Position numbers and translations under genes: made by a program. A stretch of 64,000 nt of DNA, taken from contig OY969796.1 of assembly GCA_963703155.1 (NCBI GenBank), positions 3,175,652-3,239,651 of the forward strand. The letters are read 5' to 3'. The notes beneath the pieces are model-generated. The model worked only from the letters and a program-made list of their open reading frames with translations. It had not been told where the DNA came from and made no database searches. Shown here one piece after another: positions 3,155-52,404 of the stretch. The DNA is from an uncultured Chloroflexia bacterium. GTDB taxonomy: Bacteria; Chloroflexota; Limnocylindria; Limnocylindrales; CSP1-4. Every line of letters begins with the position of its first letter. Position 1 is the stretch's first letter.

Positions 3155-3160
3155 CGAGGC

Positions 3161-17186: not shown

Positions 17187-18287
<1,101 letters not shown>

Positions 18288-30287: not shown

Positions 30288-31409
30288 TCAGCTGCCGGTC
30301 CAGCCGGTGCCGGCCATCCAGGCCTTCCAGACGTCGGGGTGGGCATCGACCCACTTCTTGGCGGCGTCATCGTCGGACATCTTGTTGGAGATGTCGGTGG
30401 CGACCGCGTTCTGGTCGTCGTTGGTCCACTTGAAGTTCTTGATGAACGCGACGGCGGGACTGCCGCTGTTCACGAAGGTGGTGGAGGCGACCTTGTTGAG
30501 GTTGTACGGCGGGTAGTCGCAGGTCATCGACTTCGCGTTGCTGTCGCAGCCTGCCGTGTAGGCCGGCAGCTGGAGGTGGACCAGCCCGTCGTTGATCTGG
30601 CTGTCGAACCAGTTGGGCTCCCAGTAGTAGGCCAGGATCGGCTTGTTGGCGCCGATGGCGGACTTGATCGCCGCGTCGGAGGCCGCCTCGGAGCCCGAGT
30701 AGACGACCTTGAAGTTGAGGCCGAGGCCCTTGACCAGCGCCTCGTCGTTGGTCACGTACGAGGGGTCGCCGTCGAGGATCTGGCCCTTGCCCCCGGACTC
30801 GCTGGTCACGAAGTCAGCCGAGAGCTTGTTGAGGGCAGCCGTGAAGGCAGCGGGAGAGGAGTTGGCCGCCATGAGCTCGGGGTGGGCGTCGGCGTAGTAC
30901 TTGGGGATGAACCAGCCGATGATCCCGACGTTGCCCTGCGAGCCCAGGTCCACCGCGACCTTCTGGTCGGTGATGTACTGCTTGGCGAGGTCCTCGTGGC
31001 CCCAGTTCTCGAGGATCACGTCCACGTCGCCGGTCGGGAAGCCCTGCCAGCTCACCTGCTCGCTCAGGGCCTTGATGCTGGTCGTGCAGCCGAGCTGCGT
31101 CCGGAGCAGGTAGTCCACGACGGCCACGTCGGCCTCGTAGCCCACCCACGGGTTGTCGGCGATGTTGACCGTGCCGCAGGGCGCCATCGAGGTGGCGGCG
31201 GCCTGGCTCGGCGAGGCGGCCGCCGATTCGGGGGCCATGCTCGCGGGCGACGCGGAGGTGGCCGCCGGAGCAGCCGACGCGGGTGTCACGGACGGGCTTG
31301 CGGCGCTGCCGCTGCAGGCCGACACGAGGATTGACAGGACGGCCGCCCCTGCGGCGAGCCGTCGGACGGTGCTGTCTGCGAGATTCAAGCCAGATCCCCT
31401 TCCTTCCAT
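30288..31409 (-). CDS. proX: glycine betaine/proline ABC transporter substrate-binding lipoprotein (ProX/OpuAC)
   Basis: Lipobox LVSAC, Ser/Ala-rich linker, ProX-like SBP domain; downstream of proV and proW. Confidence 0.7.
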   Translation of the reverse strand: MEGRGSGLNLADSTVRRLAAGAAVLSILVSACSGSAASPSVTPASAAPAATSASPASMAPESAAASPSQAAATSMAPCGTVNIADNPWVGYEADVAVVDYLLRTQLGCTTSIKALSEQVSWQGFPTGDVDVILENWGHEDLAKQYITDQKVAVDLGSQGNVGIIGWFIPKYYADAHPELMAANSSPAAFTAALNKLSADFVTSESGGKGQILDGDPSYVTNDEALVKGLGLNFKVVYSGSEAASDAAIKSAIGANKPILAYYWEPNWFDSQINDGLVHLQLPAYTAGCDSNAKSMTCDYPPYNLNKVASTTFVNSGSPAVAFIKNFKWTNDDQNAVATDISNKMSDDDAAKKWVDAHPDVWKAWMAGTGWTGS

Positions 31410-31572
31410 ACCGGCCTCATGCTCCTCCAGGCCGGATCGCGCATTGTGACCTGTCGCGGGCTTCCCCGCTTGCGAGCCCCCGTGCCCGGTGAGCGGGCGG
31501 TCTGCTCTGTGCCGTGTCTCCTCCTGCTTGGCGCCGACCCGGCCGAGGCCCGGCGGACGACGCGGTGGGGCG

Positions 31573-33522
31573 CTATTCCTCCTCGACTCGCCGGACCTCG
31601 CGCCGCGCGCCGGCCCCCTGGGTGATGCGGTCGAGCATCACGCCCAGGAGCACGATGGCAATGGCCGCGGCGAAGCCGACGCCGAAGTCCGTTCCCTGCA
31701 CCAGCCCCTGCACAACCCGGTAGCCGAGCGCCTGGCCGCCGACCAGGCCGCCCACGACGACCATCGCGAGGATCAGCACGACCCCCTGGTTCGTGGCCGC
31801 CAGCAGCGACCGCCGGGCCATGGGCAGCTGGACCTTGGTGATGACCTGGAGCGGAGTCGAGCCCGCGGACTCCGCCGCCTCGGTGGTGGTGGCCGACACG
31901 CCGCGGACGCCGTCCTCGACCAGTCGGATCACCGCCGGGATCGCATAGATGACGGCGGCCAGGATCGCCGTGAAGCGCGACGGCCCGAACAGGGCGAGGG
32001 CGGGGATGAGGTACACGAATGCGGGCATCGTCTGGAGCGCGTCGTTGATCGGGCGGACGATCTGCGAGACCAGGCTTGAGCGGGCGGCCAAGGTCCCGAT
32101 CACCACGCCCACGGCCATCGCGATCGCGACGCCGAACAGCACCTGGGTCAGCGTCTCCATCGCCGGCTCCCAGACCTGGAGCGCCACCACGAGCAGGCCC
32201 GCCAGGACGACCACGACCGCCGCGCGGCGGCCCGTGATGATCAGGGCGAGGCCCGAGGCCAGACCAATGACGAGCCAGAACGGCGACGCCGTCAGCGCGG
32301 TCTGGAGCAGGTCGATCACCCAGCCGCTGGCCGTGTCCTTGACCCAGCTGGTGAGCCACGCGAAGTTGGTGGTGAGCCAGGTGACGAACGCGTTGACCGG
32401 ATCGGCGAAGGAGAGGCTCAGACCGGTCGGGAACTCGTGCCCCCAGGGCTGCGTGATGCCCAGGGCCACGCCCACGACCGCGATCGCCCCTCCCACCGCC
32501 GCCATCTGCCGGTGGGAGGCCTTGGTCACGCGCTCCGCGCCGGTGTGGCGGCGGTCCGAGACCTGGCTCGCGCTCGCCGTGAGCCGGTCGAGGACCATGG
32601 CCAGCAGGACGATGGCGAGGCCCGCATCGAACGAGCCGCCCACATCCTGGATCTCGAGGGCCTTGAGCAGCTTCTCGCCCAGGCCGCCCGCGCCGACGAA
32701 GGCGGTGATGACCACCATCGAGAGCGCCATCATGATCGTCTGGTTGACCGCCAGGCCGATCGTGGTGCGCGCCATCGGCATCTGGACCTTGCGCAGGACC
32801 TGTCGGCCGGTCGAGCCGAGCGAGGTGGCCGCCTCGACCGTCTCGGCCGGGACGCCGCGGATGCCCAGCGCGGTGAGGCGGATGGCGGGCGGGATGGCGT
32901 AGATCATCGTCGCGATCGTCGCCGTCCCGTTGCCGATGAAGAACAGGATCGTCAGCGGGACGAGGTACGCGAACGTGGGCATGATCTGCATCAGGTCCAG
33001 GATCGGCGTCACCACGCGGAGCACGCGGTCGCTGCGGCCGGCCAGAATCCCGATCGGGATGCCGACGACCAGCGACAGGGCGACGGCCACGATCATCTGG
33101 CCGAGCGTGGTCATGGTCGGGTCCCACAGGCCGAGCAGCCCGATCATCACCAGCGCCAGGGCTGCGGCCAGCCCGGTCCGCCAGGTCACGAACACGAAGC
33201 CGAGCGCCCCGGCGATGGCGGTGATGCCGAGCCAGCCGAGCGTCGTCAGCCAGTCGGTCACGAAACCCACGAGCCCCGCTGTGCCGGTCCGGATGGGCGT
33301 GAAGAAGAGCGTGAAGTACCACTCGTTGTGGTGCAGCGCCATCCAGTTCTTGAAGTCGGTCAGGGCCTGGAACAGCGGCGTCTGCGAATCGAACGGCAGC
33401 GTCATCGTGTCGTGGAGCAGCGCGAACAGGACGGCGAATGCCGCGAGCAGGAGCGCAACGGCCTGGGGCTTGGTGATCCGGGGTCGCATCGGTCGCCGGG
33501 CGGCAACCGCGAGCGTTGTCAC
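31573..33522 (-). CDS. proW: fused tandem ProW/OpuAB-type ABC permease (two permease domains in one about 650-aa protein)
   Basis: GTG start overlaps proV stop (GTGA; alternative ATG 33489); two successive permease units each with the EAA-like loop ([20 protein letters not shown] and [20 protein letters not shown]). Confidence 0.75.
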
Positions 33523-34616
33523 GCCTCCGACTCGGTGCCCGCGATGGCCGACAGGATCAGCCGCCGGTCTACCATGCCCACCAGCCTCCCGTCGTCGACA
33601 ACTCTGACCGGGGCGTCCGCGGTGGCTGCAGCGTGGACCGCGGTGCGGATGACGGCGGTCGAGGGGAACTCGGGGCCGTCGAGGCGGTCGTCCGGGCGCA
33701 CCTCGCGCATGATCCAGCCAAGCGTGAGGACGTACGACTTGGGGACGTCCTGGACGAAGTCGGCCACGTAGTCGTCGGCGGGGGCGCCCACGATCTCCTC
33801 GGGCCGGCCGATCTGGACGATCTCGCCCGCCCGCATGATCGCGACGTGGTCGCCCAGCTTGAGCGCCTCGGCGAGGTCGTGGGTGATGAAGATCATCGTC
33901 TTGCCCACCTCGTGGTGGAGCCGGATGACCTCGTTCTGCATGTCCCGCCGGATGAGCGGGTCGAGCGCGCTGAACGGCTCGTCGAACAGCATGACCTCGG
34001 GGTCCACCGCGAGCGCCCGGGCCAGGCCCACCCGCTGCTGCATGCCGCCCGAGAGCTGGTCCGGGTAGCGCATCTCCTGGCCCTCGAGGCCGACGAGCGA
34101 GAGCATGTGGGCCGCCTTGTCGCGGCGCGCCTTCTTGGGCTCGCCGCGGATCTCCAGGCCGAACGCCACGTTGTCGATCACCCGCCGGTGAGGCAGCAGG
34201 CCGAAGTGCTGGAACACCATGGAGAACCGGTGGCGGCGCAGCTCCCGGAGGCGGGCCTGGGACGCCTTGCCGATGTCCTCCTTGTCCAGGAGCACCTCGC
34301 CCGCGGTGGGCTCGATGAGGCGCGTGAGGCAGCGGATGAGCGTGGACTTGCCCGAGCCGGACAGGCCCATCACCACGAACACCTCGCCCGGGCGGACGTC
34401 GAAGCTCACGTCGCGGACGGCCACGTTCGAGCCGGTGGCGAGTCGCAGCTCGTCCCGCGGGAGCTCGGCGAGGGCCGTGCCGATGATCTTGTGCTCGCCG
34501 GGCCCGAAGATCTTCCACAGGCCCTTGACCGAGATCGCCGTCTGGGCGACGGGCTCCTGCGCCGCAGCGAGGCGGGCCTGCGCGAACGGTCCAGGGGCGG
34601 GGAAGGTGGCGGTCAT
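33519..34616 (-). CDS. proV: glycine betaine/proline ABC transporter ATP-binding protein with C-terminal CBS pair (ProV/OpuAA)
   Basis: Walker [19 protein letters not shown], Walker [13 protein letters not shown]-terminal CBS domains. Confidence 0.85.
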
Positions 34617-34782
34617 GCCCGTGAGCCCCGACAGGTCTCCGGCGGTGTGTGGGCGAGAGACACGAGGTCAGCTCCTCCATGGAATGCGTCGCCCCGCTCC
34701 CGGGCGACGAAGCGCACAGAGTAGGCGCTGACGGCCAGGAGCGTCAGGCTCGTTGTGCAGGCCGCGTTGGTCCTGCCGCGGG

Positions 34783-35574
34783 TCATGCCGCCCCCCTCCG
34801 GTCGCGCCAGCCGAGCCTGCGCCCGATCTCGTCGCCCGCCGCCATCACGGCCGCGGCAACGGCCTCGAACCGATCCGGGCCCAGCCGGTACGAGGGGCCA
34901 GACGCGCTGACCGCGGCCACCACGGCGCCGTCGTGGCCGCGGATGGGCGCCGCGATCGCATTGAGCCCCACCTCCAGCTCTTCGCGCGTGGAGGCCCAGC
35001 CGGACGCCGCCACGCCGGCAAGCTCGCGCTCGAGGGCGGAGCGGTCGGTGATGGTCGTCGGCGTGAAGCGCTCCAGCGGTCGGGCCAGCAGGCGGGCGCG
35101 CTCCGCGGGGTCGGAGGAGGACAGCAGCACCTTGCCGCTCGAGGTGGCGTGGAGCGGGGTCCGCTGGCCCACCCAGTTCTGGGTCGCGACGGTGGCGCCG
35201 CCGAGCACCTGGTCCAGGTTGACCACCGCATCGCCCTCGAGGCGGGCCACGTTGACGGTCTCCCCCACCTCGGCGGCCAGGCGGCGCGAGACGGGCCGGC
35301 TCTGCTCCACCAGGTCGAGGCGTCCGGCGGTGGCGCCAGCGAGACGGACGATCCCGAAGCCGAGGCGGTAGCGCCCGCGCTCGCTGACCTGCTCCACGAG
35401 GCCGCGGGCCTCGAGCACGGCGAGCAGCCGGTGGGCGGTGCTCTTGTGCACGCCCAGGGCCGCGGCCAAGTCGGTCACGGCTCCGTCCTCGCGCTCGGCG
35501 AGGTACTCGAGCACGTCGATGGCGCGGTCCACCGACTGGATCACGGCCGGCACCTCGAGGCGGCCCTCAGCCAT
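34783..35574 (-). CDS. IclR-family transcriptional regulator (last gene of corrinoid methyltransferase operon)
   Basis: ATG 35574 inside longer track ORF; HTH plus IclR effector domain; start overlaps upstream gene stop. Confidence 0.8.
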   Translation of the reverse strand: MAEGRLEVPAVIQSVDRAIDVLEYLAEREDGAVTDLAAALGVHKSTAHRLLAVLEARGLVEQVSERGRYRLGFGIVRLAGATAGRLDLVEQSRPVSRRLAAEVGETVNVARLEGDAVVNLDQVLGGATVATQNWVGQRTPLHATSSGKVLLSSSDPAERARLLARPLERFTPTTITDRSALERELAGVAASGWASTREELEVGLNAIAAPIRGHDGAVVAAVSASGPSYRLGPDRFEAVAAAVMAAGDEIGRRLGWRDRRGAA

Positions 35575-36106
35575 GCCCGGCCCCCGCTCCCCCGGCGACC
35601 CCGGACGACAGCGCCGCGACGGCTTCCGCCAGTGATGCCAAGTGCCCGGCGTCGTGGCGCAGGACCTCGCCCAGAAGCCCCACCGCGTCCAGTTCACCGA
35701 ACCTGGCGTGGACCCCCGTGCAGCGCAGGGCGGCCTCGTCCATCGCCGCGACGGTCTCCACCACCTTGGCCCGAGCGGCGCAGAAGGCTTCGGACGCCTC
35801 GTCCGGGCTCGGGTCGGGTCGCCCGGCGAGGTCTGGCTCCGTCCACGGCCAGGACGGGTGGTCGTGCGCCGCCAGCTGGCGGAAGCGCGGCGTCCAGACC
35901 TCGGCGTCGACCGCCGCCAGGTGGACGACGATCCGGACCGGCGTCCAGCCGCCGTCAGGCCCCGGCGCGGTCGCCGCGTCGCCCAGCCTGTGGAGCATCG
36001 CGCCCGCCCACTCCGCCGCCTCACGCAGCGCGGGCACGAGGGCGGCCACGTCGGCAGCGCGGTTGGCGGCTCGTCCGTCGTCAGGGTCCGGGGCGGCCAG
36101 CGGCAT
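35567..36106 (-). CDS. DinB/YfiT-like (TIGR03083-type) putative metal-binding protein
   Basis: 179 aa from ATG 36106; DinB_2-like helical bundle with His-containing motifs (HLAAVDAEV, HDHPSW, HDAGHLASL); 2 bp after MttB stop. Confidence 0.45.
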   Translation of the reverse strand: MPLAAPDPDDGRAANRAADVAALVPALREAAEWAGAMLHRLGDAATAPGPDGGWTPVRIVVHLAAVDAEVWTPRFRQLAAHDHPSWPWTEPDLAGRPDPSPDEASEAFCAARAKVVETVAAMDEAALRCTGVHARFGELDAVGLLGEVLRHDAGHLASLAEAVAALSSGVAGGAGAGHG

Positions 36107-36108
36107 CG

Positions 36109-37650
36109 TCACTCCGCCGCGTCGGGCATGGACGCCTTCCGGCGCGCGATGAAGTCGAGGAGCGCCTCGTCCACCGCGGGGTCGATCGCCGGCGCCTCGT
36201 AGTCGGCGAGCATCTTCTTCCAGACTCGATTGGCGCGCGCCCGGGCGTCGAGCTCGCCGTCCTCGAGCCACTGCTCGTAGCTGTTGTTGTCGGCGATCTC
36301 CGAGCGGTAGAACGCGGTCTCGAAGTTGGCGAGGGTGTGCGCGGTGCCCAGGAAGTGCTGGCCCGGGCCGTTCTCGCGGATCGCGTCGAGCGCCTGCCCG
36401 TTCTCCGAGAGGTCCACGCCCTTGGCGAACACGCTCATCATCCCGAGCTGGTCGGCGTCCATGACGAACTTCTCGTAGCCGATCGTCAGGCCGCCCTCGA
36501 GCCAGCCCGCGGCGTGGAGGACGAAGTTCGTCCCGGCGAGGACCGTGGGCTGGAGCGTCGCCGCCGACTCATAGGCCGCCTGCGCGTCCTCGATCTTGGA
36601 CGCGGTCAGGCTGCCGCCGGAGCGGAACGGGACGCCGAGACGGCGGGCGAGCGCCGCCATCGTGTACAGCACCAGCGCGGGCTCCGGCGTGCCGAAGGTG
36701 GGCGCGCCCGACTGCATCGACATCGAGCTCGCGAAGGAGCCCAGGATCACCGGCGCCCCGGGGCGCACGAGCTGGGCGAGGGTCATGCCGCCGAGCGCCT
36801 CGGCGAGAGTCTGGGCGGCGACGCCGGCGGAGGTCACCGGGGCCATGGCGCCCGCCAGGATGAACGGCGTGACGATGCACGCCTGGTTCGCCGCCGCGTA
36901 GGTCCGCAGCGCGCCGAGCATCGTCGCGTCCCAGACGAGCGGCGAGTTGGCGTTGATGAGGCTGGTGACGACCGCGTTCTGGTCGACGAACTCCGCGCCG
37001 AACACGATCTTGGCCATCTCGACGGTGTCGGCGGCGCGCTCGGGCGCGGTGACCGAGCCCATGAACGGCTTGTCCGAGTACCGGATGTGGGCGTAGACCA
37101 TGTCGAGGTGGCGCTTGTTGACGGCGACGTCAGTGGGCTCGCAGACCGTGCCGCCCGAGTGGTGGAGGTTCGGCGAGGCGTAGGCGAGCTTGACGAAGTT
37201 CTCGAAGTCCTCGAGCGTCGCGTACCGCCGACCGCCCTCAAGGTCCCGCACGAACGGCGAGCCGTAATTGGGCGCGAAGACCGTGTTCATCCCACCGATC
37301 GTCACGCTGCGCTCGGGGTTCCGGGCGTACTGGACGTAGGTGCGCGGGGCGCTGGCCTGGACGATCGAGCGGCACAGGCCGGCCGGGAATCGGACCCGCT
37401 CGCCGTTGACATCGGCGCCGGCGTCGCGCAGCAGGCGGAGCGCCTCCGGATCACCGCGGAACTCGAGGCCCACCTCCTGGAGGATGACGTCGGCGTTGTG
37501 CTCGATGAGCGAGAGGCCCTCCTCGGAGAGCACCTCGAACGGCGCCATGGTCCGGGTGAGGAACGGGGCGCGCGCCACGGCCGAATGGGCACGGGCCGCC
37601 TGGCGCCCGGCACGACCGCCGCTGCGCCGGCCGTGGAGATCGTCGGTCAT
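36109..37650 (-). CDS. MttB-superfamily (trimethylamine methyltransferase family, non-pyrrolysine) substrate:corrinoid methyltransferase; MtgB-like, predicted glycine betaine or related quaternary amine
   Basis: 513 aa uninterrupted (no in-frame amber); Arg-rich N-terminus RRSGGRAGRQAARA typical of non-Pyl MttB homologues; TIM-barrel family sequence; ATGA coupling to upstream gene. Confidence 0.75.
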   Translation of the reverse strand: MTDDLHGRRSGGRAGRQAARAHSAVARAPFLTRTMAPFEVLSEEGLSLIEHNADVILQEVGLEFRGDPEALRLLRDAGADVNGERVRFPAGLCRSIVQASAPRTYVQYARNPERSVTIGGMNTVFAPNYGSPFVRDLEGGRRYATLEDFENFVKLAYASPNLHHSGGTVCEPTDVAVNKRHLDMVYAHIRYSDKPFMGSVTAPERAADTVEMAKIVFGAEFVDQNAVVTSLINANSPLVWDATMLGALRTYAAANQACIVTPFILAGAMAPVTSAGVAAQTLAEALGGMTLAQLVRPGAPVILGSFASSMSMQSGAPTFGTPEPALVLYTMAALARRLGVPFRSGGSLTASKIEDAQAAYESAATLQPTVLAGTNFVLHAAGWLEGGLTIGYEKFVMDADQLGMMSVFAKGVDLSENGQALDAIRENGPGQHFLGTAHTLANFETAFYRSEIADNNSYEQWLEDGELDARARANRVWKKMLADYEAPAIDPAVDEALLDFIARRKASMPDAAE

Positions 37651-39686: not shown

Positions 39687-39699
39687 GACCGGCTCGGCC

Positions 39700-42664: not shown

Positions 42665-42807
42665 ACCTATCTCCCCCCGGAGACGGTTATCCAATCGTCG
42701 CCGCGGCACTCGTGCTCAGTGCCCAGCGCGGGGACCCTTCTGACTAACCCCCGGGAGGAGATAGGAGCGCAATTCGCGTGACAAGCCGCGTCGGGAGGAG
42801 ATACGAG
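42665..42807. repeat. three copies of the TATCTCC-CCGG-GAGGAGATA palindromic motif (42665..42687 inverted/degenerate; 42747..42765; 42789..42807 direct)
   Basis: Direct inspection of the 463-bp intergenic region between gntR 3' end and the corrinoid operon start. Confidence 0.55.
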
Positions 42808-42847
42808 TGCGATTGCCGGGAGCGACGTACGCCAGCGCGGGCGGCCC

Positions 42848-43504: not shown

Positions 43505-43522
43505 CACAGTGCAGGATCGCCG

Positions 43523-43552
43523 TTGACACCGCGGATTGTCAACAGTTAGCAT
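43523..43552 (+). promoter_or_regulatory. GntR-type operator palindrome TTGACAccgcggatTGTCAA overlapping a sigma70-like promoter (-35 TTGACA, 18-bp spacer, -10 TAGCAT) for the DMGDH-etfBA operon
   Basis: Perfect 6-bp inverted arms with the t.GT...AC.a core typical of GntR/FadR sites, in the 115-bp divergent gntR/DMGDH intergenic region. Confidence 0.6.
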
Positions 43553-43619
43553 CCCGCCACTGTCCGCCCCGTCACGGGCTCCCACGCGCGCAACCCCAAT
43601 CCCCCAAGGAGTCGCCTCG

Positions 43620-46127
43620 ATGGCCAGCCTCCCGTCCCACGCCAAGGTCGTGATCATCGGCGCCGGAATCGTCGGCAACAGCATCGCCTACCACCTGGCG
43701 AACCTGGGCTGGAAGGACATCGTCCAGATCGACAAGGGGCCCATGCCCAATCCTGGCGGCTCGACCGGCCACGCCAGCAACTTCATCTACTACGTCGACC
43801 ACAACAAGGAGATGACCGCGCTCACGATCGAGAGCGCCAACCAGTACCGCGCGTGGGACGTGTACACCGAGTGCGGCGGCCTCGAGGTCGCGCGCACCGA
43901 GACGCGCATGAACGAGCTCCGCCGGCGCATGGACTCGGCCAAGAACTGGGGCGTCGACTCGGCTCGCCTGGTCACCCCGGCCGAGATCAAGGAGATGGTC
44001 CCGTTCATCAACGAGGAGATCCTCGTCGGCGGGTTCTGGGTCCCCGAGGTGGGCGTCTGCGACTCGCTCCGCTTCGGCACGATGTGCCGCGAGAAGGCCG
44101 AGGAGATGGGCGCGCTCACGGTCCTCGCCAACACCGAGGTCCTCGACATGGTGGTCGAGGACGAGCGGATCAAGAGCGTCGTGACCACGCGCGGCACCAT
44201 CGACGCCGACTACGTGGTCATCGCCTGCGGCGTCTGGGCGCCCAAGCTGGCCGAGATGGCCGGCGCCCACATCCCGCTGACCCCGGTCGTCCACCAGATG
44301 GCGGACTACGGCCCCGTCCCGATCTTCGAGAAGTCGTCCAAGGCGATCGAGTACCCGATCGTGCGCGACATGGACGTGCTGATGTACGAGCGCCAGGACG
44401 GGATCGGCTTCGAGGTGGGCTCCTACGCCCACCGCTCGATCCTGCACGATCCGGAGGAGATCCCCTCCATCGAGGAGGCGAAGCTCTCCCCGACGGAGCT
44501 GCCCTTCACGCAGGACGACTTCGACCCGCAGCTCGAGGACGCGCTCGAGCTGTTCCCCGAGATCCTCGGCGACGAGCGGGTCGGCCAGAAGTACGCCATC
44601 AACGGCCTGATCGCCCTCACCCCCGACGGCATGCCGCTCCTGGGCGAGACGCCCGAGGTCCAGGGCCTGTGGTCGGCCGCCGCGGTGTGGGTCAAGGAGG
44701 GTCCGGCGGTTGGCAAGTGCATCGCCGAGTGGATGGTCCACGGCGAGCCCTCGATCGACTGCAACCAGAGCGACATCAGCCGCTTCCACGCCCACCAGAA
44801 GACGCGCCAGCACACCAAGCGCCGCGCGTTCGAGGCGTTCCCCAAGACCTACGGCATCGTCCACCCGGCCGAGCAGTACCTCTCCGACCGCCCGCTCCGC
44901 AAGTCGCCGATGTACGACTGGCACCGGGAGCACGACGCGGAGCTGTTCGAGGTCGCCGGCTGGGAGCGGGCGCAGTGGTACAACAGCAACGCCCCGCTGG
45001 TCGAGAAGTACGGCGTCACCACGCGCCCCAACGAGTGGGACGCCCGGTGGTGGAGCCCCATCATCAACGCCGAGCACCTCGCCATGCGCGAGGCGGCGGG
45101 CATCTTCGACCTCTCCGCGTTCGCCGTCTTCGACATTCTGGGCACGGGCGCCCTCGACAGCGTCCAGGGCGTGTGCCTGCGCCAGATGGACGTGGCCGTC
45201 GGCAAGGTGGTGTACACGCCGGTCCTCTCCGAGCGCGGCGGTTTCAAGAGCGACCTCACCGTGATGCGCCTGGGCAAGCACCACTTCCGGGTGGTGACCG
45301 GCGGCGCCCACGGCATGGCCGACCTCAAGTGGTTCAAGGACCACCTGCAGCCCATGGCGTCGATCGTGGACCTCACCGACGCGTACACGACGATCGGCGT
45401 CTGGGGGCCGAAGGCGCGCGACATCGTGCAGTCGATCACCCGGGCCGACATGAGCGGCGCGGCGTTCAAGTTCGGCACCTGTCGCAAGGTCGAGATCGGC
45501 AGCCAGCTCGTGCTGGCCTCGCGGATCAGCTACGTCGGCGACCTCGGCTGGGAGCTCTACGTCCCGATGGAGCAGGGCCAGCGGCTGTGGGACGAGCTGT
45601 GGGCAGCCGGCCAGGCGCATGGCCTGGTGGCCTGCGGCATGGGCGTCTACGGCACGACCGGCCGCCTCGAGAAGGGCTACCGCGCGTACGGCGCGGAGCT
45701 CGACGACGACTACACCGTGGTCGAGGCCGACATGGCGCCGGCGCGGCTCAAGGCACAGGACTTCGTGGGCCGCGACGCCCTGGAGCGCCAGCTGGGCCAG
45801 CCGGCGGCGGCGCGCTGCTGCACCCTCACCGTCGACGACCACACCTCCAAGACTGGCGAGCGTCGCTACATGCTGGGCCGCCAGCCGATCACCCTTGCCG
45901 ACGGCTCCCCGATCACCGACCGCAAGGGCCGCCGCTCGTACGCGACGTCGGCCGGCGCGGGCCCGAGCCTCGGCAAGCACCTGCTGATGGCGTACCTGCC
46001 GCCGGAGCACGCCGTCGAGGGCAACCAGCTCTTCGTCCAGTACTTCGACGAGCTCTACCCCGTCACCGTCGCGCGGGTCGGCGCGCTGCCGCTGTTCGAC
46101 CCCGAGAACGACCGAATCCGGGCCTGA
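43620..46127 (+). CDS. dimethylglycine/sarcosine dehydrogenase family protein (DAO FAD domain + GcvT folate-binding domain)
   Basis: RBS AAGGAG; VVIIGAGIVGNSIAYHL FAD fold; C-terminal aminomethyltransferase (GcvT-like) fold; followed by etfBA. Confidence 0.8.
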   Translation: MASLPSHAKVVIIGAGIVGNSIAYHLANLGWKDIVQIDKGPMPNPGGSTGHASNFIYYVDHNKEMTALTIESANQYRAWDVYTECGGLEVARTETRMNELRRRMDSAKNWGVDSARLVTPAEIKEMVPFINEEILVGGFWVPEVGVCDSLRFGTMCREKAEEMGALTVLANTEVLDMVVEDERIKSVVTTRGTIDADYVVIACGVWAPKLAEMAGAHIPLTPVVHQMADYGPVPIFEKSSKAIEYPIVRDMDVLMYERQDGIGFEVGSYAHRSILHDPEEIPSIEEAKLSPTELPFTQDDFDPQLEDALELFPEILGDERVGQKYAINGLIALTPDGMPLLGETPEVQGLWSAAAVWVKEGPAVGKCIAEWMVHGEPSIDCNQSDISRFHAHQKTRQHTKRRAFEAFPKTYGIVHPAEQYLSDRPLRKSPMYDWHREHDAELFEVAGWERAQWYNSNAPLVEKYGVTTRPNEWDARWWSPIINAEHLAMREAAGIFDLSAFAVFDILGTGALDSVQGVCLRQMDVAVGKVVYTPVLSERGGFKSDLTVMRLGKHHFRVVTGGAHGMADLKWFKDHLQPMASIVDLTDAYTTIGVWGPKARDIVQSITRADMSGAAFKFGTCRKVEIGSQLVLASRISYVGDLGWELYVPMEQGQRLWDELWAAGQAHGLVACGMGVYGTTGRLEKGYRAYGAELDDDYTVVEADMAPARLKAQDFVGRDALERQLGQPAAARCCTLTVDDHTSKTGERRYMLGRQPITLADGSPITDRKGRRSYATSAGAGPSLGKHLLMAYLPPEHAVEGNQLFVQYFDELYPVTVARVGALPLFDPENDRIRA

Positions 46128-46129
46128 CG

Positions 46130-46894
46130 ATGCGCGTCCTCGTCTGCGTCAAGCGCGTCCCCGCGGTCGCCGGGCGCCTCACCCTCACCGAGGACGAGCG
46201 CGCCCTCGACACCAAGTACGTGGGGTTCCAGGTGGGGCCCCACGAGGAGTGCGCGGTCGAGGAGGCCGTCCGCCTGGTCGAGGCGCACGGCGGCGAGGCC
46301 GTCGTGCTCACCCTGGGCCCGGCCGAGGCGGCCGAGCAGCTGCGCGAGGCGATGGCGATTGGCGCGGCCCGCGCGATCCACCTCGTCACCGACGGCGAGG
46401 AGTGGGACGCCGAGTCCACGGCCGGCGCGATCACTGACGCCCTCCGCGAGGACGAGGCGGCGAACGGCCCGTTCGACCTCGTGCTGCTGGGCAACGAGGC
46501 CGCCGACTCGGGCGGCTACCAGGTGGGCGTGCGCATCGGGCGGGCGCTCGGCCGGCCCGTCGTGACCGGGATCAAGGCGCTGTCGGTGACCGACGGCACC
46601 GCCCGCTGCGAGCAGGAGGCCGCTGGCGGCCGCGACGTCTACGAGGTCCGGACGCCGGCCGTGGTCGCGGTGCTGGAGGGCATCAACCTCCCGCGCTACC
46701 CGTCGGTGCCGGGGCGCATCCGGGCAAAGTCGAAGCCGGTGGCGACGTCGACGCCCGCCCGCCCGGCGCAGCGCCTCGAGATGCTGCGCCTGGTGGTGCC
46801 GGTGACCGAGGCGAAGCAGGCGCAGGTGCTGGGCCACGGGGCCGCCGCCGCGCCCGCCGTGGTGGAGCTCCTCGCCAGCGTGGGGGTGCTCTAG
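46130..46894 (+). CDS. etfB: electron transfer flavoprotein beta subunit
   Basis: MRVLVCVKRVP start typical of EtfB; 2 bp after DMGDH stop. Confidence 0.85.
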   Translation: MRVLVCVKRVPAVAGRLTLTEDERALDTKYVGFQVGPHEECAVEEAVRLVEAHGGEAVVLTLGPAEAAEQLREAMAIGAARAIHLVTDGEEWDAESTAGAITDALREDEAANGPFDLVLLGNEAADSGGYQVGVRIGRALGRPVVTGIKALSVTDGTARCEQEAAGGRDVYEVRTPAVVAVLEGINLPRYPSVPGRIRAKSKPVATSTPARPAQRLEMLRLVVPVTEAKQAQVLGHGAAAAPAVVELLASVGVL

Positions 46895-46896
46895 CC

Positions 46897-47856
46897 ATGG
46901 CGACCGTCCTGGTCCTCGTCACCGCCGCCGACGGCGCGCCCGACAAGGTCGCGCTCCAGGCGCTCACCCTCGGCGGCCAGCTGGCCGCCGGCGGCCCCGT
47001 CCACGCGCTGGTCCTCGGCGACGACGCCGTCGCCGCCGGGCTCGGGGCGTGGGGCGCCAGCAGCGTCCACGTCGCGAAGCACCCAGCGCTCGACATGCCG
47101 GCGCCCGATGCCGCGGCCCGGACCGTCGACGACCTCGCGCGCTCGCTCGGCGCGGACTTCGTGGTCGGCCCCGGCACCGAGGAGGGCAACACGGTCCTCG
47201 CTCGGGCCGCCGCCCGCGCCGGCCTGCCGTTCGCCGCCAACTGCCTCGCCGTGACGCCCGGGTCGCCGGTCACCGTCACCCGGTCCCGATGGGGCGGCTC
47301 GCTCCTCGAGCAGGCCGCGATCCACGCCGATCGCGCGGTCCTCACCGCGGCGCCGCACGCCATCGAGGCATCCCAGACCGGGGGCTCCGCTCCCGTCGAG
47401 GTGTTCACCCCGCAGCTCGACGACGCCGACCTCGCCGTCCGCGTCGTGGGCCGCGTCCCGGCGCCCGCTGGCGGCGTGTCGCTCGCCGACGCCAAGGTGG
47501 TGGTCTCGGGTGGGCGCGGCGCGGGTTCCGCGGAGGGCTTCGCGCCGATCGTCGAGCTGGCCTCGCTCCTCGGGGCGGCCGTCGGCTGCTCGCGCGCGGT
47601 CACGATCGCGGGCTGGCGACCGCACACCGAGCAGGTTGGCCAGACCGGCACGAAGATCGCGCCGGACCTCTACATCGCAGCCGGGATCTCTGGCGCCACG
47701 CAGCACCTTGCCGGGTGCAAGGGCGCCAAGCGGATCCTCGCGATCAACAAGGATGCCGAGTCGCCCATCATGGCCTCCGCCGACTACGCGGTCATCGGCG
47801 ACCTGGCCGAGGTGCTGCCCGCGATCAGCGCCGCGATCCGGCAGCGACGCGGGTAG
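46897..47856 (+). CDS. etfA: electron transfer flavoprotein alpha subunit
   Basis: FAD-binding signature PDLYIAAGISGATQHLAGCKGAKRILAINKD. Confidence 0.85.
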   Translation: MATVLVLVTAADGAPDKVALQALTLGGQLAAGGPVHALVLGDDAVAAGLGAWGASSVHVAKHPALDMPAPDAAARTVDDLARSLGADFVVGPGTEEGNTVLARAAARAGLPFAANCLAVTPGSPVTVTRSRWGGSLLEQAAIHADRAVLTAAPHAIEASQTGGSAPVEVFTPQLDDADLAVRVVGRVPAPAGGVSLADAKVVVSGGRGAGSAEGFAPIVELASLLGAAVGCSRAVTIAGWRPHTEQVGQTGTKIAPDLYIAAGISGATQHLAGCKGAKRILAINKDAESPIMASADYAVIGDLAEVLPAISAAIRQRRG

Positions 47857-47962
47857 CTTCGGCGCCTGCCGCTCCCGACACAGCGACGCCGGGCCCGCGA
47901 GGGACCCGGCGTTCTGATGCCCGGTGGTGCAGCGCGGCGCCGGCCCCCGCGACGGGGAGTGA

Positions 47963-48217
47963 TCAGCCCCGGCGCCCGCGGATCGCCGGGTGGTGCGGCA
48001 GGAGGTTGTGGGCGCCGCACTGGGGACACCCCACCCAGGACAGCCGGGACCCCCAGAGGAGCTCCACCAGCATGCGCCGGAACCGCGCCCGGCACGACCC
48101 GCAGGTGACCTCCCAGCGGCTGATCAGCCCGAGGTTGCCGGGCAGCCAGCCCACCTGCACGGGGTTGATCCCCTCCACCTCGACGGGGACGAGGCGTCGA
48201 TCCTGGCCGGCTGGCAT
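47963..48217 (-). CDS. small zinc-ribbon protein (two CxxC pairs), hypothetical
   Basis: 84 aa; CGSC...CPQC; ATG 17 bp after the dsbA-like stop with AAGGGG RBS. Confidence 0.35.
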   Translation of the reverse strand: MPAGQDRRLVPVEVEGINPVQVGWLPGNLGLISRWEVTCGSCRARFRRMLVELLWGSRLSWVGCPQCGAHNLLPHHPAIRGRRG

Positions 48218-48233
48218 GGGCGGTCTACCCCCT

Positions 48234-49130
48234 TCAGCTCCCCGACGGTGCGGCCGAACTCGACGCGGGTGCGGCCGACCCGGAGCCGGCGACGGCGTTC
48301 ACGGCGGCCGCGATTTCGGCATAGGTCGCGTTGACGAAGGTCCCGTTCACGAGCACCGAGGGCGTGCCATGGCCCGAGACGGAGGTCGGCAGGCTCTGCT
48401 GCTCGGCCGCGATCTCCGCATTGTGCGTGCCGCCCTGCAGGCAGGACGTGTAGCTCGTCATGTCCAGGCCCGCCGCCTGGCCGATCTTGAGCAGCCTGTC
48501 CATGGTGAACACGGATGCTGCCTCGCTCGTCTGGTTCGCATACAGGTAGTCGTGCATGACCCAGAACTTGTTCTGGTCGGCAGCACACCAGGCGGCGTTC
48601 GCGGCGTTGCGTGACGCTTGCGACCCGTCGCCGTCGATGATCGTGAAGTCGTGCCAGACCAGCTTCGCCTTCCCGGTTGCGACGAGCAGGGTGTCGACCT
48701 GTCTCGCGGTGCCGCCCTCGGTGAACGAGTAGCAGGCCGAGCAGCGGAAGTCGCCGTACAGGTCGATGGTGGCGGGAGCATTCGCGTTGCCCAGCGTGCG
48801 GCCGTCGCTGGGGATCGACGCGGGGGTGGAGTTGGCTGCGCCGGGCGCGATCACGGAGGCGTCGTTGACGACCGCCGGGTTGGAGCCCAGCTGCTGGATC
48901 GCGACGAAGGCCACGATCAGCACGCCGACGATGATGCCGCCGATGGTCATGATCGCCGTTCGGCTCGGCCCCGACGACGACTTCGTTGCGCTCACGCGGT
49001 TCGGCTGCCAGGGCTCGCTCGGCTTGCGGCCCGCGGGGCGCTGGCCGGCGGGCCGGTTCGACGGCGCCGAGGGCGCGGGGGTCGCGGGACGGTTCGCGGC
49101 GCGGTTGCTGCCGCGGGATTGCTTGGCCAT
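48234..49130 (-). CDS. DsbA-family thiol:disulfide oxidoreductase with disordered N-terminus and TM anchor
   Basis: ATG 49130 with GGAGG RBS; TM IMTIGGIIVGVLIVAFVAI; thioredoxin-fold CSAC active site. Confidence 0.6.
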   Translation of the reverse strand: MAKQSRGSNRAANRPATPAPSAPSNRPAGQRPAGRKPSEPWQPNRVSATKSSSGPSRTAIMTIGGIIVGVLIVAFVAIQQLGSNPAVVNDASVIAPGAANSTPASIPSDGRTLGNANAPATIDLYGDFRCSACYSFTEGGTARQVDTLLVATGKAKLVWHDFTIIDGDGSQASRNAANAAWCAADQNKFWVMHDYLYANQTSEAASVFTMDRLLKIGQAAGLDMTSYTSCLQGGTHNAEIAAEQQSLPTSVSGHGTPSVLVNGTFVNATYAEIAAAVNAVAGSGSAAPASSSAAPSGS

Positions 49131-49138
49131 GGTCTCCT

Positions 49139-50587
49139 CTAGCCCAGGTTGATGACGACGGTCTTGAGCTCGGTCAGCCGCTCCATCGAGAAGCGGCCGC
49201 CGACGCGACCCACGCCGCTGTCGGCGCCGGCGCCGCCGCCGAACGGGAGGTGTGACTCCCAGTAGTTGGTGCCCTCGTTGATGTTGACCCATCCGGTCCG
49301 GACGGCCTCGGCGAACCGCAGCCCCCGGGCGAGGTCGCGGGTGAAGATACCCGCAAGCAGCCCGAAGGGCGAGTCGTTGACGATCCTGAGCGCGTCGGCT
49401 TCGGATTCGATGACAGTGATGGGCGCCACCGGCCCGAACGTCTCGTCGCGGGCGATCTCCATGGCGTCGGTGACGCCGTCGAGCACCGTGGGCTCGTAGA
49501 AGAGCCCAGTGGCGAAGCCCGGGGCGCGCCGACCGCCGGCGACCACCCGGGCCCCCTGGCCGATGGCGTCCTGGACGTGGCGCTCGGTCTTCGCGGCCTG
49601 CGCCTCGTTGTTGACCGGGCCCATCGTGGTGGCCTCGTCGGCCGGGTCGCCGAGGTGGATGCGGGCGGCGACGGCCGCGGCCAGCTTCGCGAGGTAGGCG
49701 TCGTGGACCCCGGCCTGGACAAGGATGCGCTCGCCCGCCGTGCAGCTCTGGCCAGCGTTGAGGAAGCATGCGGTCAGGGTGGCCTCGACCGCCTTGTCGA
49801 GGTCCGCATCGTCGAGCACGATCAGCGGTCCGTTGCCGCCCAGCTCGAGCAGCACGTCCTTGCCGACGGCACGGGTGCCGACCTTCTTGCCCGCCTCGAC
49901 GGAGCCCACGAACCCCACGGCGCCCACGTCCCGATGCCCGGCGATCTCGTCGCCCACCACCGAGCCCGGCCCGGTGACCAGGTTGAACACGCCAGCCGGC
50001 AGCCCCGCGTCGACGAAGCAGCGGGCCATCTCGATCGAGCAGGCCGACGTGTTCGACGCCGGGTTCCACACGACGGCGTTCCCGGCCGCGAGGGCCGGGG
50101 CGATGATCTCGCCGGCCATCGTGTAGGGCCAGTTCCAGGGCGTGATGACCGACACGACGCCGCGCGGCACGCGGTAGACCAGCACGCGCTTCGCTGCGTC
50201 AACCGACGGCAGGATGAGCCCCTCGATCCTCGTCGCGTCGGCCGCGGCCATCTTGAAGTAGGCCAGCAGCTCCTCGACCTCGCCGCGCGCCTCGGTGATC
50301 GGCTTGCCCTGGTCGCGGCACAGGGCCTGCGCCATCACCTCTCTCCGCTCCACGACGAGCGCCCCGACCCGCTCGAGCGCGGCCGCCCGGTCGAAGGCGG
50401 ACAGCTTGGCCCAGACGACCTGACCCGCCCTGGCCGCGGCGATCGCGCGCTGCGCGTCCGCCCGGTTGCCCTTGGGGATCGAGGCGAAGACCTCGCCCGT
50501 CGCCGGGTTCCTCGCGTCGAAGGTCTCGCCGGACTCGGCGGCGCACCATGCGCCGTCCACGTGCATGGCCATCTGGTCGACCGCCAT
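49139..50587 (-). CDS. betB: betaine-aldehyde dehydrogenase (NAD-dependent aldehyde dehydrogenase family)
   Basis: ATG 50587 with GGGAGGG RBS; ALDH motifs ELGGNGP and catalytic QSCTAGER; immediately downstream of betA. Confidence 0.7.
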   Translation of the reverse strand: MAVDQMAMHVDGAWCAAESGETFDARNPATGEVFASIPKGNRADAQRAIAAARAGQVVWAKLSAFDRAAALERVGALVVERREVMAQALCRDQGKPITEARGEVEELLAYFKMAAADATRIEGLILPSVDAAKRVLVYRVPRGVVSVITPWNWPYTMAGEIIAPALAAGNAVVWNPASNTSACSIEMARCFVDAGLPAGVFNLVTGPGSVVGDEIAGHRDVGAVGFVGSVEAGKKVGTRAVGKDVLLELGGNGPLIVLDDADLDKAVEATLTACFLNAGQSCTAGERILVQAGVHDAYLAKLAAAVAARIHLGDPADEATTMGPVNNEAQAAKTERHVQDAIGQGARVVAGGRRAPGFATGLFYEPTVLDGVTDAMEIARDETFGPVAPITVIESEADALRIVNDSPFGLLAGIFTRDLARGLRFAEAVRTGWVNINEGTNYWESHLPFGGGAGADSGVGRVGGRFSMERLTELKTVVINLG

Positions 50588-50619
50588 TTCGCCCTCCCGG
50601 GTTGCTGCTGTGAGCCCGG

Positions 50620-52284
50620 TCAGGCGGGCGTGTGACGGTAGAACGCCTCGCGCTCCGGGGGGAGCGGCGTGTTGCCGAGGAGCAGGTCGGCTGCCTTCTC
50701 GGCCAGCATCATGACCGGCGCGTAGATGTTGCCGTTGGTGACGTAGGGCATCGAGGAGGCGTCCACCACCTTGAGCCCCTCGACCCCGTGGACCCCCATC
50801 GTGAGCGGGTCGAGCACGGACATGTCGTCGACGCCCATGCGGGCGGTGCATGACGGGTGCAGCGCGGTCTCGCCGTCGCGGGCCACCCAGTCCAGGATCT
50901 CGTCGTCGGTGCTGACCTTCGGCCCGGGCGACGTCTCGCCCGCGTTGAACGGCTCGAACGCCTTCTGGCCCAGGATGGTGCGGGCGACGTGGATCGCCTC
51001 GACCCACTCGCGGCGGTCCTGGTCGGTGGACAGGTAGTTGAACCGCAGCGCCGGGTGGACCGCGGGGTCGGCACTCTTGATCTTGAGCGTGCCGCGGGCG
51101 TCGGAGTACATCGGGCCCACGTGGACCTGGTAGCCGTGGCCGCCCTTCGGCTTGCTGCCGTCGTAGCGGATCGCCAGCGGCAGGAAGTGGAACATCAGGT
51201 TGGGGTAGGCCACGTCGTCGTTGCTGCGGACGAAGCCACCCGCCTCGAAGTGGTTGGTGGCCCCCGGTCCCTTGCGCAGGAACAGCCACTGGAAGCCGAT
51301 CCACGGACGGCGCCACGTCTGGAGCGCGGGCTGCATCGAGACCGGCAGCTTCGAGGCGTACTGGACGTAGACCTCGAGGTGGTCCTGGAGGTGCTCGCCG
51401 ACGCCCTTGACGTCAGCGACCGGGCTGATGCCCAGCGCCTTGAGCTCATCGGCGTTGCCCACGCCCGAGAGCTGGAGGAGCTGTGGCGAGTTGATGGAGC
51501 CTCCGGCGAGGACCACGGTGCCGGCGCGGGCCTCATGGCGCTCGTCGCCGCCCTTGCCCGTGGTGTACTCGACGCCGACGGCGCGCTTGCCCTCGAAGAT
51601 GACCTTGGCGACGAAGGCGCCGGTCTTGACGGTCAGGTTCCTGCGGTCCATCACCGGGTGGAGGTACGCGCGGGCCGCGGACAGGCGGCGGCCATTGCGG
51701 ATGTTCCGGTCAAACGGGGCGAAGCCCTCCTGGCGGAAGCCGTTGACGTCCTCGGTGAGCGGGTAGCCGGCCTGCTGGACGGCCTCGAAGAAGGCGCCGA
51801 AGAGCGGGCTGCTGGCCGGGCCGCGCTCGAGGTGGAGCGGGCCGGAGTGGCCGCGCCACGGATCTGCGAGGTCCGCGGCGGTGCAGCTCTCCATGCGCCG
51901 GAAGTACGGCAGGCAGTGGGCGTAGTCCCAGCTGTCCATGCCGGGATCGCTCGCCCAGCGCTCGTAGTCCATCGGGTTGCCGCGCTGGAAGATCATCCCG
52001 TTGATCGACGAGCTGCCGCCGAGGATCTTGCCGCGCGCGTGGTAGATCCGGCGGTTGTGCATGAACGGCTCGGGCTCCGACTCGTACTTCCAGTCGTAGT
52101 ACTTGGAGCCGATCGGGAAGGTCAGCGCGGCCGGCATGTGGACGAAGACGTCGAACAGGTAGTCCGGGCGCCCGGCCTCCAGCACCAGCACCTTCGTCCC
52201 CGGTTCCGCACTCAGCCGATTGGCGAGCACCGAGCCCGCGGAGCCACCCCCGACGATGACGAAGTCGTAGCGCGTGCTTGCCAT
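50620..52284 (-). CDS. betA: choline dehydrogenase (GMC oxidoreductase)
   Basis: [23 protein letters not shown] fold; GMC signatures; 554 aa. Confidence 0.8.
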
Positions 52285-52323
52285 TGACGGATCGTACCCA
52301 ATCGCCCGGCGCCGAATTGCTTA

Positions 52324-52349: not shown

Positions 52350-52404
52350 GCGCGCGTGGGCCGGGCAACTGGCGAGGGGCCCGGCACACGAGGGTGGCGC
52401 GCTG

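Follow-up and report, generated by a model that had tools for sequence, protein, structure and literature searches.

We analysed a 64,000-nt stretch of contig OY969796.1 from an uncultured Chloroflexia bacterium (the window, below), which carries at positions 30288–52284 a group of genes that probably serve the catabolism of choline and glycine betaine by a cobalamin (B12)-dependent route. The window has a GC content of ~72% throughout, so that a plain list of open reading frames (ORFs) is swamped by spurious frames; genes were called from third-position GC content (GC3) and codon-position statistics and were annotated with Pfam and NCBIfam models. An earlier reading of the bare sequence (the original prediction) had placed within these 22 kb a proVWX-type importer, an MttB/corrinoid module, a GntR-regulated flavoenzyme with an etfBA pair, and betA-betB. 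All four are found there by Pfam and NCBIfam. The list of the original prediction did not contain a RACo/RamA-like activase, a DUF1638 protein, a PF13769 protein, an IclR-family regulator or a DinB_2-family ORF, and these are present as well.

The core of the locus is a string of genes on the minus strand, in the order corrinoid protein, DUF1638, PF13769, pterin-binding protein, activase, MttB homologue, DinB_2 and IclR. Most neighbours overlap by 1–4 nt or lie 13 nt apart, and the maximum gap, between the MttB and DinB_2 genes, is 71 nt. The first gene (41707–42384, minus strand) encodes an MtgC-like corrinoid (B12-binding) protein of 225 aa with B12-binding_2 and B12-binding domains. Its start, MGTDEQ, is common to the related loci L082 and L084 and gives this length; the maximal ORF of 319 aa is not used by the relatives. 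The DxHxxG motif is present as DIHDIG (residues 208–213 of the long ORF), and two MtgC models are the top NCBIfam matches of the protein, both under their cutoffs.

The DUF1638 gene follows (40958–41710, minus strand; 250 aa, Pfam DUF1638 96 bits). The gene for a small PF13769 (‘Virulence_fact’) protein (40608–40958, minus strand; 116 aa, Pfam 75 bits) comes between this one and the pterin-binding gene and shares 1 and 4 nt with them. The pterin-binding protein (39700–40611, minus strand; 303 aa, Pterin_bind) is a predicted MtgD-like methyl-tetrahydrofolate (methyl-THF):corrinoid methyltransferase; it scores 354 bits against PRK07535 (cutoff 259), and its top PDB matches are MeTr/AcsE-type enzymes and MetH's folate domain. 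Next comes a RACo/RamA-like protein, a predicted ATP-dependent reductive corrinoid activase (37647–39686, minus strand; 679 aa), in which Fer2, RACo_linker, Raco_middle and RACo_C_ter are matched; it has an N-terminal [2Fe-2S] ferredoxin domain and gives 351 bits with the AcsV-like NCBIfam model. A RamA-like protein and DUF1638 have been tied genetically to B12 reactivation in Phaeobacter (Price et al., PMC5764234).

The activase stop overlaps by 4 nt the start of the gene for the MttB-superfamily methyltransferase (36109–37650, minus strand; 513 aa), an uninterrupted ORF without a pyrrolysine codon that is matched end to end by Pfam MTTB (PF06253, 768 bits). A DinB_2-family ORF (35567–36037, minus strand; Pfam DinB_2 39.7 bits) separates it from the gene for an IclR-family regulator (34783–35553, minus strand; HTH_IclR and IclR_C) at the 3′ end of the string.

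Downstream of the string, likewise on the minus strand, are the genes of an ABC transporter: the ATPase (33519–34616, minus strand; 365 aa, Pfam ABC_tran), a fused double-domain permease (31573–33489, minus strand; 638 aa, two BPD_transp_1 stretches) and an OpuAC/ProX-family substrate-binding lipoprotein (30288–31409, minus strand; 373 aa, Pfam OpuAC 110 bits), whose N-terminus MEGRGSGLNLADSTVRRLAAGAAVLSILVSAC has a lipobox and a lipoprotein signal peptide. Orthologues of the permease (648–653 aa) occupy the equivalent position in relatives, and the ATPase is 50% identical to a Sinorhizobium meliloti glycine betaine/L-proline ABC ATPase encoded near the MtgBCDE locus of that species.

On the other side of the string, a gene for a GntR/FCD regulator (42848–43504, minus strand; 218 aa, GntR and FCD domains) is divergent from a gene on the plus strand for a flavoenzyme of the dimethylglycine oxidase/dimethylglycine dehydrogenase (DMGO/DMGDH) family (43620–46127; 835 aa, DAO, FAO_M, GCV_T and GCV_T_C). 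The latter is predicted to be a dehydrogenase of dimethylglycine and possibly also of sarcosine. It resembles DMGO of Arthrobacter globiformis (1PJ5) and mammalian DMGDH (4PAB, 5L46) in its four-domain architecture, in the conserved His that carries covalent FAD (GGSTGHA, aligned with GGSTSHA of DMGO, H48), in the catalytic His/Tyr (HQ and Y) motifs and in its C-terminal half, a folate-binding aminomethyltransferase domain. Genes for the beta and alpha subunits of electron transfer flavoprotein (ETF) follow on the same strand, etfB (46130–46894; Pfam ETF) 3 nt past the flavoenzyme stop and etfA (46897–47856; ETF, ETF_alpha) 3 nt past the stop of etfB. In the Arthrobacter enzyme the likeness is to an oxidase; unlike that DMGO, the flavoenzyme of the window adjoins etfBA and seems to be transcribed together with it. 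This points to a dehydrogenase in spite of a sequence that is closer to the oxidase, and we infer that ETF is its electron acceptor.

Convergent to etfA, on the minus strand, are a gene for choline dehydrogenase BetA (50620–52284; 554 aa) and, downstream of it, one for an aldehyde dehydrogenase (49139–50572, minus strand; Pfam Aldedh 511 bits), a candidate betaine aldehyde dehydrogenase (BADH) by its position after betA. BetA passes the equivalog cutoff of TIGR01810 (815 bits, cutoff 732) and matches PRK02106 at 845 bits. A DsbA-like gene and a 71-codon ORF lie between the aldehyde dehydrogenase gene and etfA.

The identity of the MttB homologue is central to the interpretation of the locus. 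The pyrrolysine-type NCBIfam model TIGR02369 gives 271 bits, far under its cutoff of 525, and the pyrrolysine-type MttB 7XCL gives 112 bits. The glycine betaine methyltransferase MtgB of Desulfitobacterium hafniense (2QNE/9YCE) is matched at 425 bits with 45% identity, and the MttB-family protein of S. meliloti in PDB entry 4YYC at 741 bits with 67–70% identity. We found the gene for the latter by a protein search of a plasmid collection, on a 3.7-Mb replicon labelled pSymB, where its translation contains 4YYC. It adjoins genes for a cobalamin-binding protein, DUF1638, a PF13769 ‘virulence factor’, methylenetetrahydrofolate reductase (MTHFR), a methyl-THF:cobalamin methyltransferase, an ASKHA activase and bmt, a locus described as MtgBCDE by Mausz et al. 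(PNAS 2025, PMC12478193). The identities between the window and S. meliloti are 67.5% for MtgB, 76% for MtgC, 63% for MtgD, 58% for the activase, 51% for DUF1638 and 49% for PF13769; judged by sequence, all six module proteins are orthologous to those of the MtgBCDE locus.

Four residues of D. hafniense MtgB, Y97, F356, R312 and H348, hold glycine betaine, as established by mutagenesis and a betaine-bound structure (Picking et al., PMC13080624). In a HMMER alignment three of the four contacts are kept: Y129, R343 and H379 of the window protein correspond to Y97, R312 and H348. The carboxylate-binding residues R343 and H379 are invariant in 80 out of 80 relatives, as are the Tyr, a GG pair and W383, four residues past the His. 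The S. meliloti protein 4YYC has the same pattern, the equivalent of W383 included.

All window proteins were compared by tblastn with 80 GTDB-representative loci (±10 kb) that carry relatives of the MttB gene and come from Chloroflexota, Actinomycetota, Acidobacteriota and Alpha-, Beta- and Gammaproteobacteria. The neighbours found among the 80 loci were the activase (53 loci), the pterin-binding protein (50), the corrinoid protein (50), DUF1638 (47) and PF13769 (44); the IclR gene was found in 28, and the MTHFR gene of proteobacterial loci in 13. In 45 loci the ±10 kb flanks are complete. Here, the corrinoid/pterin/RACo trio is present in 31, a flavoenzyme homologue (at least 45% identity) in eight, each time with ETF genes, betA in five and OpuAC in four; at least one DMGDH-type, ETF, betA or OpuAC neighbour occurs in 17 of these 45. 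By these counts the co-localization exceeds chance.

A separate metagenome scan was seeded with BetA. The corrinoid module adjoins betA on eight of its contigs (L113, L116, L117, L126, L137, L142, L151 and L164), a DMGDH-like gene together with both etf genes is present on two, and homologues of the aldehyde dehydrogenase (56–67% identity) adjoin betA in ~11 of 80 metagenome loci. The recurrent linkage to enzymes that would consume dimethylglycine and make betaine is the strongest argument for glycine betaine as the substrate of the MttB homologue. The original prediction had assigned to this protein the role of a glycine betaine:corrinoid methyltransferase feeding THF; orthology, the 45% identity to MtgB and gene linkage support the assignment in silico, and substrate and direction of methyl flow are put forward on these grounds.

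The locus appears to have two promoters with different control sequences. A scan for sigma70-type promoters over 19 kb (34000–53000) gave two sites where 0.4 would be expected, each in front of one of the two operons. The site TTGACA-18-TAGCAT, 68 nt upstream of the flavoenzyme start, is overlapped by a palindrome, GTTGACA-N8-TGTCAAC (site and palindrome together 43522–43552, plus strand), a candidate GntR operator for the flavoenzyme/etfBA operon. The block GCTAACTGTTGACAAT...TGTCAAC is invariant across five orthologous intergenic regions with differing flanks, and the GntR/FCD gene has equal length and position in the loci L084 and L085. Thus the notion of a ‘GntR-regulated’ flavoenzyme gains support from the divergent GntR gene and from an invariant palindrome at a promoter-like site.

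The second site, TGGACA-17-TATTGT (42473–42445, minus strand), lies 61 nt upstream of the start of the corrinoid gene and is followed by CGTTGCGCAATCCGCAACTCGTTGCGC (42443–42417); the predicted promoter and motif together span 42417–42473. Just past the −10 element the sequence CGTTGCGC..GCAAC..GTTGCGC is kept in the window and in loci L002, L082, L084 and L085, with diverging flanks. A second regulator plausibly acts on the corrinoid operon, with the IclR protein as the candidate; its gene is found past the MttB homologue in all of L081–L085. The pairing of the GntR and IclR proteins with these two putative operators would follow from position and conservation.

An operator common to all intergenic regions was also considered and rejected, as a comparison of 9-mers gave only GC-rich chance matches and the motifs of the two promoters differ. 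No cobalamin riboswitch or other Rfam RNA was detected in 42300–43700 at E ≤ 1, nor was one found near the cluster at the gathering score when the whole window was searched. A non-coding gap of 463 nt (42385–42847) separates the stop of the GntR gene from the start of the corrinoid gene; it has no Rfam match, and the equivalent gap measures 179–706 nt in relatives. TATCTCCTCCCG occurs in it twice in direct orientation and, ~90 nt downstream, once inverted (GGGGGAGATAGG).

Taken together, we consider it likely that the window carries a chromosomal choline/glycine betaine catabolic locus of an aerobic, B12-using, Limnocylindria-like member of the Chloroflexota. In the proposed scheme BetA and the adjacent aldehyde dehydrogenase would oxidize choline to glycine betaine, and the OpuA/ProU-type ABC system may import a betaine-type compound. 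The MtgB-like enzyme would take one N-methyl group from glycine betaine and place it on the Co(I) of the MtgC-like protein, releasing dimethylglycine, and the MtgD-like enzyme would pass the methyl group from methyl-Co(III) to THF, yielding 5-methyl-THF. Corrinoid accidentally oxidized to Co(II) would be repaired by the [2Fe-2S]/ASKHA activase of the RACo-RamA type, with DUF1638, and possibly PF13769, as accessory proteins. The flavoenzyme would then oxidatively demethylate dimethylglycine, its C-terminal folate domain trapping the formaldehyde unit as 5,10-methylene-THF, and its electrons would go to the apparently co-transcribed EtfBA. Of the two promoters, that of the flavoenzyme operon would be under the control of GntR/FCD through the palindrome, and that of the corrinoid operon, with the other motif, would plausibly be bound by IclR.

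A number of observations weigh against this reading, and the first of them concern the active site. Residue F356 of MtgB aligns with G387 of the window protein, so the cation-pi pair of aromatic residues formed by Tyr97 and Phe356 in D. hafniense is only half conserved. A second aromatic residue is probably supplied from another position, for which the alignment offers W383 as a candidate substitute. Moreover, the Arg, and often the His as well, is found in MttB-family enzymes that act on other quaternary amines (PMC13080624), so that the substrate cannot be read from the residue pattern alone.

Another quaternary amine or a methylamine (proline betaine, carnitine, gamma-butyrobetaine, choline/phosphocholine or methylamine) might thus be the substrate, with betaine handled elsewhere by GbcAB, betaine-homocysteine methyltransferase (BHMT) or an MttB paralogue. 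Such an assignment would accommodate the Gly at the position of F356, the many specificities known in a superfamily of which several members share Arg312 and His348, and the fact that aerobic genomes often hold up to seven paralogues. It would also accommodate the substrate-binding protein of the transporter, whose best solved relative, 4XZ6 (a glycine betaine/proline-type protein), is a weak match of 79.5 bits. Because of this weak match, ‘betaine uptake’ is a family-level label; of the proVWX system described by the original prediction, the OpuAC, permease and ATPase genes stand, and the betaine ligand is a prediction at the level of the family. Orthology with the MttB gene in the MtgBCDE locus of S. 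meliloti (67–70% identity) argues for glycine betaine over the other amines, as do the much higher similarity to the proven MtgB than to pyrrolysine-type MttB and the repeated adjacency to betA and to DMGDH-type/ETF genes, which are predicted to act on the compound that betaine demethylation yields. On balance we regard a different amine as improbable.

Further reservations apply to the choline and transport genes. The aldehyde dehydrogenase is under both BADH cutoffs (TIGR01804, 389 versus 668.6 bits; PRK13252, 378 versus 593 bits), and several other aldehyde dehydrogenase models score equally well; the betA half of the predicted betA-betB pair is secure at the level of the equivalog model, and the betB half is a candidate. 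The transporter, in turn, can be lost in near relatives. Loci L081 and L083 have no ABC transporter genes, and a 99-aa OpuAC remnant (12727–13026) stands directly after IclR; L082 (12885–17210) and the window (30288–34616) have the full transporter, a strain-level deletion polymorphism among contigs that carry the identical MttB homologue (97%).

The genes betAB and ProU/OpuA are classic osmoprotection genes. One could suppose that osmoprotection is the function of betA, the aldehyde dehydrogenase and the ABC transporter and that they lie near the demethylation genes by chance, the substrates of the aldehyde dehydrogenase and the flavoenzyme being possibly unrelated. The sub-cutoff BADH scores, the absence of the transporter from some close relatives and the separation of betA-betB from the ETF genes by convergent transcription, a DsbA-like gene and a small ORF would all be in line with that. 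The linkage of betA/OpuAC with the corrinoid module or with DMGDH-type/ETF genes recurs, though, in unrelated lineages, and L082, L084 and L085 have all kept the order transporter-IclR-MttB. Both roles can coexist, and a chance neighbourhood strikes us as very improbable, the least probable of the explanations considered here.

For the flavoenzyme, too, the match to an oxidase (DMGO 1PJ5, 488 bits along its full length) is closer than that to the mammalian ETF-linked DMGDH (~288 bits). The prediction of a DMGDH-family enzyme with a dedicated etfBA pair is borne out in family architecture and in the adjacent ETF genes; the closest characterized likeness is to the Arthrobacter oxidase. The window contains no separate gene for the oxidation of sarcosine to glycine, no gene for methyl-THF oxidation (MTHFR, FolD or PurU) and no cobalamin synthesis gene. 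The intact form of PF13769 is also dispensable, since it is truncated in the nearest relatives, L081–L083.

The other known routes from betaine to dimethylglycine were sought in the window. No Rieske domain and no PF02574 domain (BHMT/bmt) was found by Pfam in the called genes, and no CxH-x15–19-CxxH Rieske motif is present in the six frames. Queries with S. meliloti bmt (BHMT/MtgE), MTHFR, formyltransferase and ferredoxin, and with a small hypothetical protein encoded in the MtgBCDE locus, gave no tblastn match in the 64 kb. The sole similarity to GbcB, at 20.7 bits, comes from the activase's ferredoxin domain. Pfam, the six-frame motif search and tblastn being all negative, the statement of the original prediction that neither BHMT nor a GbcAB-like Rieske oxygenase is visible in the window holds for these 64 kb; whether the B12 step stands ‘instead of’ them in the genome is beyond what one window can show.

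The lack of a homocysteine methyltransferase (PF02574/bmt) in the window bears on yet another explanation, in which the corrinoid, pterin-binding, activase and DUF1638 proteins are mainly a split cobalamin-dependent methionine synthase of the MtgCDE type and adjacency to betaine genes reflects shared cofactor handling. Methionine synthesis in Phaeobacter inhibens and Ruegeria pomeroyi requires MtgC, MtgD, the RamA-like protein and DUF1638, and tblastn places a bmt/MtgE-like gene within 10 kb in seven of the 80 related loci. Here, on the other hand, all four stand in a single string with the MttB gene, overlapping or almost touching, and catabolic genes and dedicated regulators flank the locus. 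A mainly methionine-synthesizing module is therefore hard to credit. The module may have some link to methionine synthesis, and a dual methionine/catabolic role would not contradict betaine catabolism as the main explanation.

The original prediction had called the locus an island. Composition does not bear this out: GC content and skew are uniform, with no break around the cluster. An exact look-up of the MttB protein of the window gave no match. Its closest homologues are 97% identical and annotated as Candidatus Limnocylindrales or Chloroflexota, and a scan of GTDB species representatives found homologues at 78–85% in metagenome-assembled genomes (MAGs) of Limnocylindrales and ‘Chloroflexia’. 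With these homologues and the syntenic contigs, an actinobacterial origin, which the 72% GC had suggested, was rejected. Contigs with the 97% homologue are 90–93% identical in DNA over the compared segment and have the same gene order, and genes for an M23 peptidase, an NTP-transferase, YbjN and quinolinate phosphoribosyltransferase (QRPTase) flank the locus in the relatives as in the window. A gene order shared with close relatives, flanks included, speaks for a stable chromosomal locus, and the hypothesis of a horizontally acquired island was dropped. As far as sequence can tell, the locus is inherited vertically and stably, as an ordinary stretch of chromosome in a Limnocylindria-like lineage. 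On a wider scale, MttB homologues are 68–85% identical across Chloroflexota, Actinomycetota, Acidobacteriota and Proteobacteria (L001–L080); such values, high for so distant phyla, suggest horizontal spread of the whole module.

Within the string two places vary among close relatives. The slot between MttB and IclR is occupied by DinB_2 in the window and by a 127-aa gene without a Pfam match in L081–L083, is empty in L084, and in L085 holds a 293-aa MTHFR (PF02219; 11546–12427). An MTHFR gene directly after MttB in this Limnocylindria-like relative fits 5-methyl-THF as the product and has its counterparts in metF2 of R. pomeroyi and in the MTHFR genes of proteobacterial loci. The second place is the DUF1638/PF13769 pair. 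In L081–L083 (6187–7035) deletions that total ~250 nt by comparison with the window have joined DUF1638 and a shortened PF13769 domain into one gene of 282 aa; the window, L084 and L085 keep two intact genes. The invariant residues of PF13769 are W9, D11, I12, P13, Q15, F33, Q34, D38 and W56 (the copy in L167 is at 7108–7410). A search of PDB sequences with the PF13769 profile gave no meaningful match, and a single-sequence AlphaFold model had a predicted local distance difference test (pLDDT) score of 58, too poor for a fold search. The family looks like an unrecognized accessory component of aerobic corrinoid methyltransferase systems.

The closest known systems are the aerobic MtgBCD(E) systems. 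In aerobic R. pomeroyi, mtgC and mtgD knock-outs lose growth on, and consumption of, glycine betaine (Mausz et al., PMC12478193), and in P. inhibens deletion of mtgB1 together with gbcAB abolishes all growth on betaine (bioRxiv 10.64898/2025.12.19.695462). The locus shares with them six matching components, the aerobic way of life of the hosts, and the linkage to dimethylglycine-step genes and betaine transport, which was reported for several marine lineages (PMC12478193). The differences are several. The host here belongs to the Chloroflexota, whereas the experiments of PMC12478193 were made in Proteobacteria and Actinomycetota appeared there only as 5% of mtgC reads. The module genes, scattered in R. 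pomeroyi, form here one compact, partly overlapping string. MtgE/bmt and MTHFR are absent from the window, GntR and IclR are the apparent regulators, and an ETF-linked DMGDH-type gene, betA and the aldehyde dehydrogenase gene lie within the same 22 kb.

The MtgB/MtgC/MtgA system of D. hafniense is similar in having a TIM-barrel enzyme of the MttB family, a three-component methyl transfer to THF and ATP-dependent reductive activation. That host is an anaerobe, in contrast to the one considered here, whose protein has the Gly in place of F356 and the invariant Trp, and whose corrinoid protein stays under the NCBIfam MtgC cutoffs; aerobic MtgC proteins are a separate lineage (PMC12478193). GbcAB and BHMT (of the SAR11/human type) carry out the same step from betaine to dimethylglycine with unrelated proteins; in the B12 route, by contrast, the methyl group is preserved as methyl-THF, and neither O2/NADH nor homocysteine is needed.

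The in silico evidence thus supports reading the locus as an aerobic MtgBCD system combined with known upstream and downstream betaine genes, a new phylum example of a pathway already published in 2025. A more far-reaching proposal, which we put forward only tentatively and consider rather doubtful, is that the module of Limnocylindria-like Chloroflexota and of related Actinomycetota and Acidobacteriota is a self-contained, purely catabolic demethylase that does without MtgE, has an ‘aerobic’ active site with Trp for Phe, and uses PF13769 as a sixth component which, with DUF1638 and the activase, would keep the corrinoid reduced in the presence of O2.

Elsewhere in the window, positions 1–4773 hold an aromatic-catabolism cluster (a Lyase_1 fragment, PF00206, an alpha/beta hydrolase, a carboxymuconolactone decarboxylase family (CMD) protein, PF02627, a PobA-like FAD monooxygenase, the beta subunit of protocatechuate 3,4-dioxygenase and an IclR regulator), which indicates an O2-dependent lifestyle. 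A cytochrome c assembly protein is also encoded, and a class II (B12-dependent) ribonucleotide reductase, a second cobalamin-dependent enzyme, begins at 62720 on the plus strand and runs past the window end at 64000. The dioxygenase, the monooxygenase, cytochrome c assembly and this reductase fit an aerobic, B12-using heterotroph. A malK-III RNA (17089–17189, plus strand; Rfam RF03009, 78.9 bits) lies directly upstream of a gene for a MalK-like ABC ATPase (17196–18287). Three ORFs on the minus strand at 21504–26293 and 54894–56036 (879, 700 and 380 aa) have good coding statistics and no Pfam match; those of 879 and 700 aa are kept beside YbjN in relatives (871- and 704-aa genes in L081/L083).

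The mttB/mtgB-type genes of Limnocylindria MAGs have been counted as markers of anaerobic methylotrophy in at least one MAG survey (PMC11264602), and public records label these genes ‘trimethylamine methyltransferase’. The locus described here would add soil and freshwater Chloroflexota to the marine Proteobacteria as hosts of the recently discovered aerobic, cobalamin-dependent demethylation of betaine, and the survey of relatives would extend the route further, to Acidimicrobiia, Gaiellales and Acidobacteriota. With a methyltransferase, a corrinoid protein, a THF methyltransferase, an activase and two accessory proteins in one compact locus, a gene set is at hand for heterologous reconstitution. 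The known mechanism is left unchanged, and what the finding points to is a dependence on B12 of osmolyte turnover in abundant uncultured lineages.

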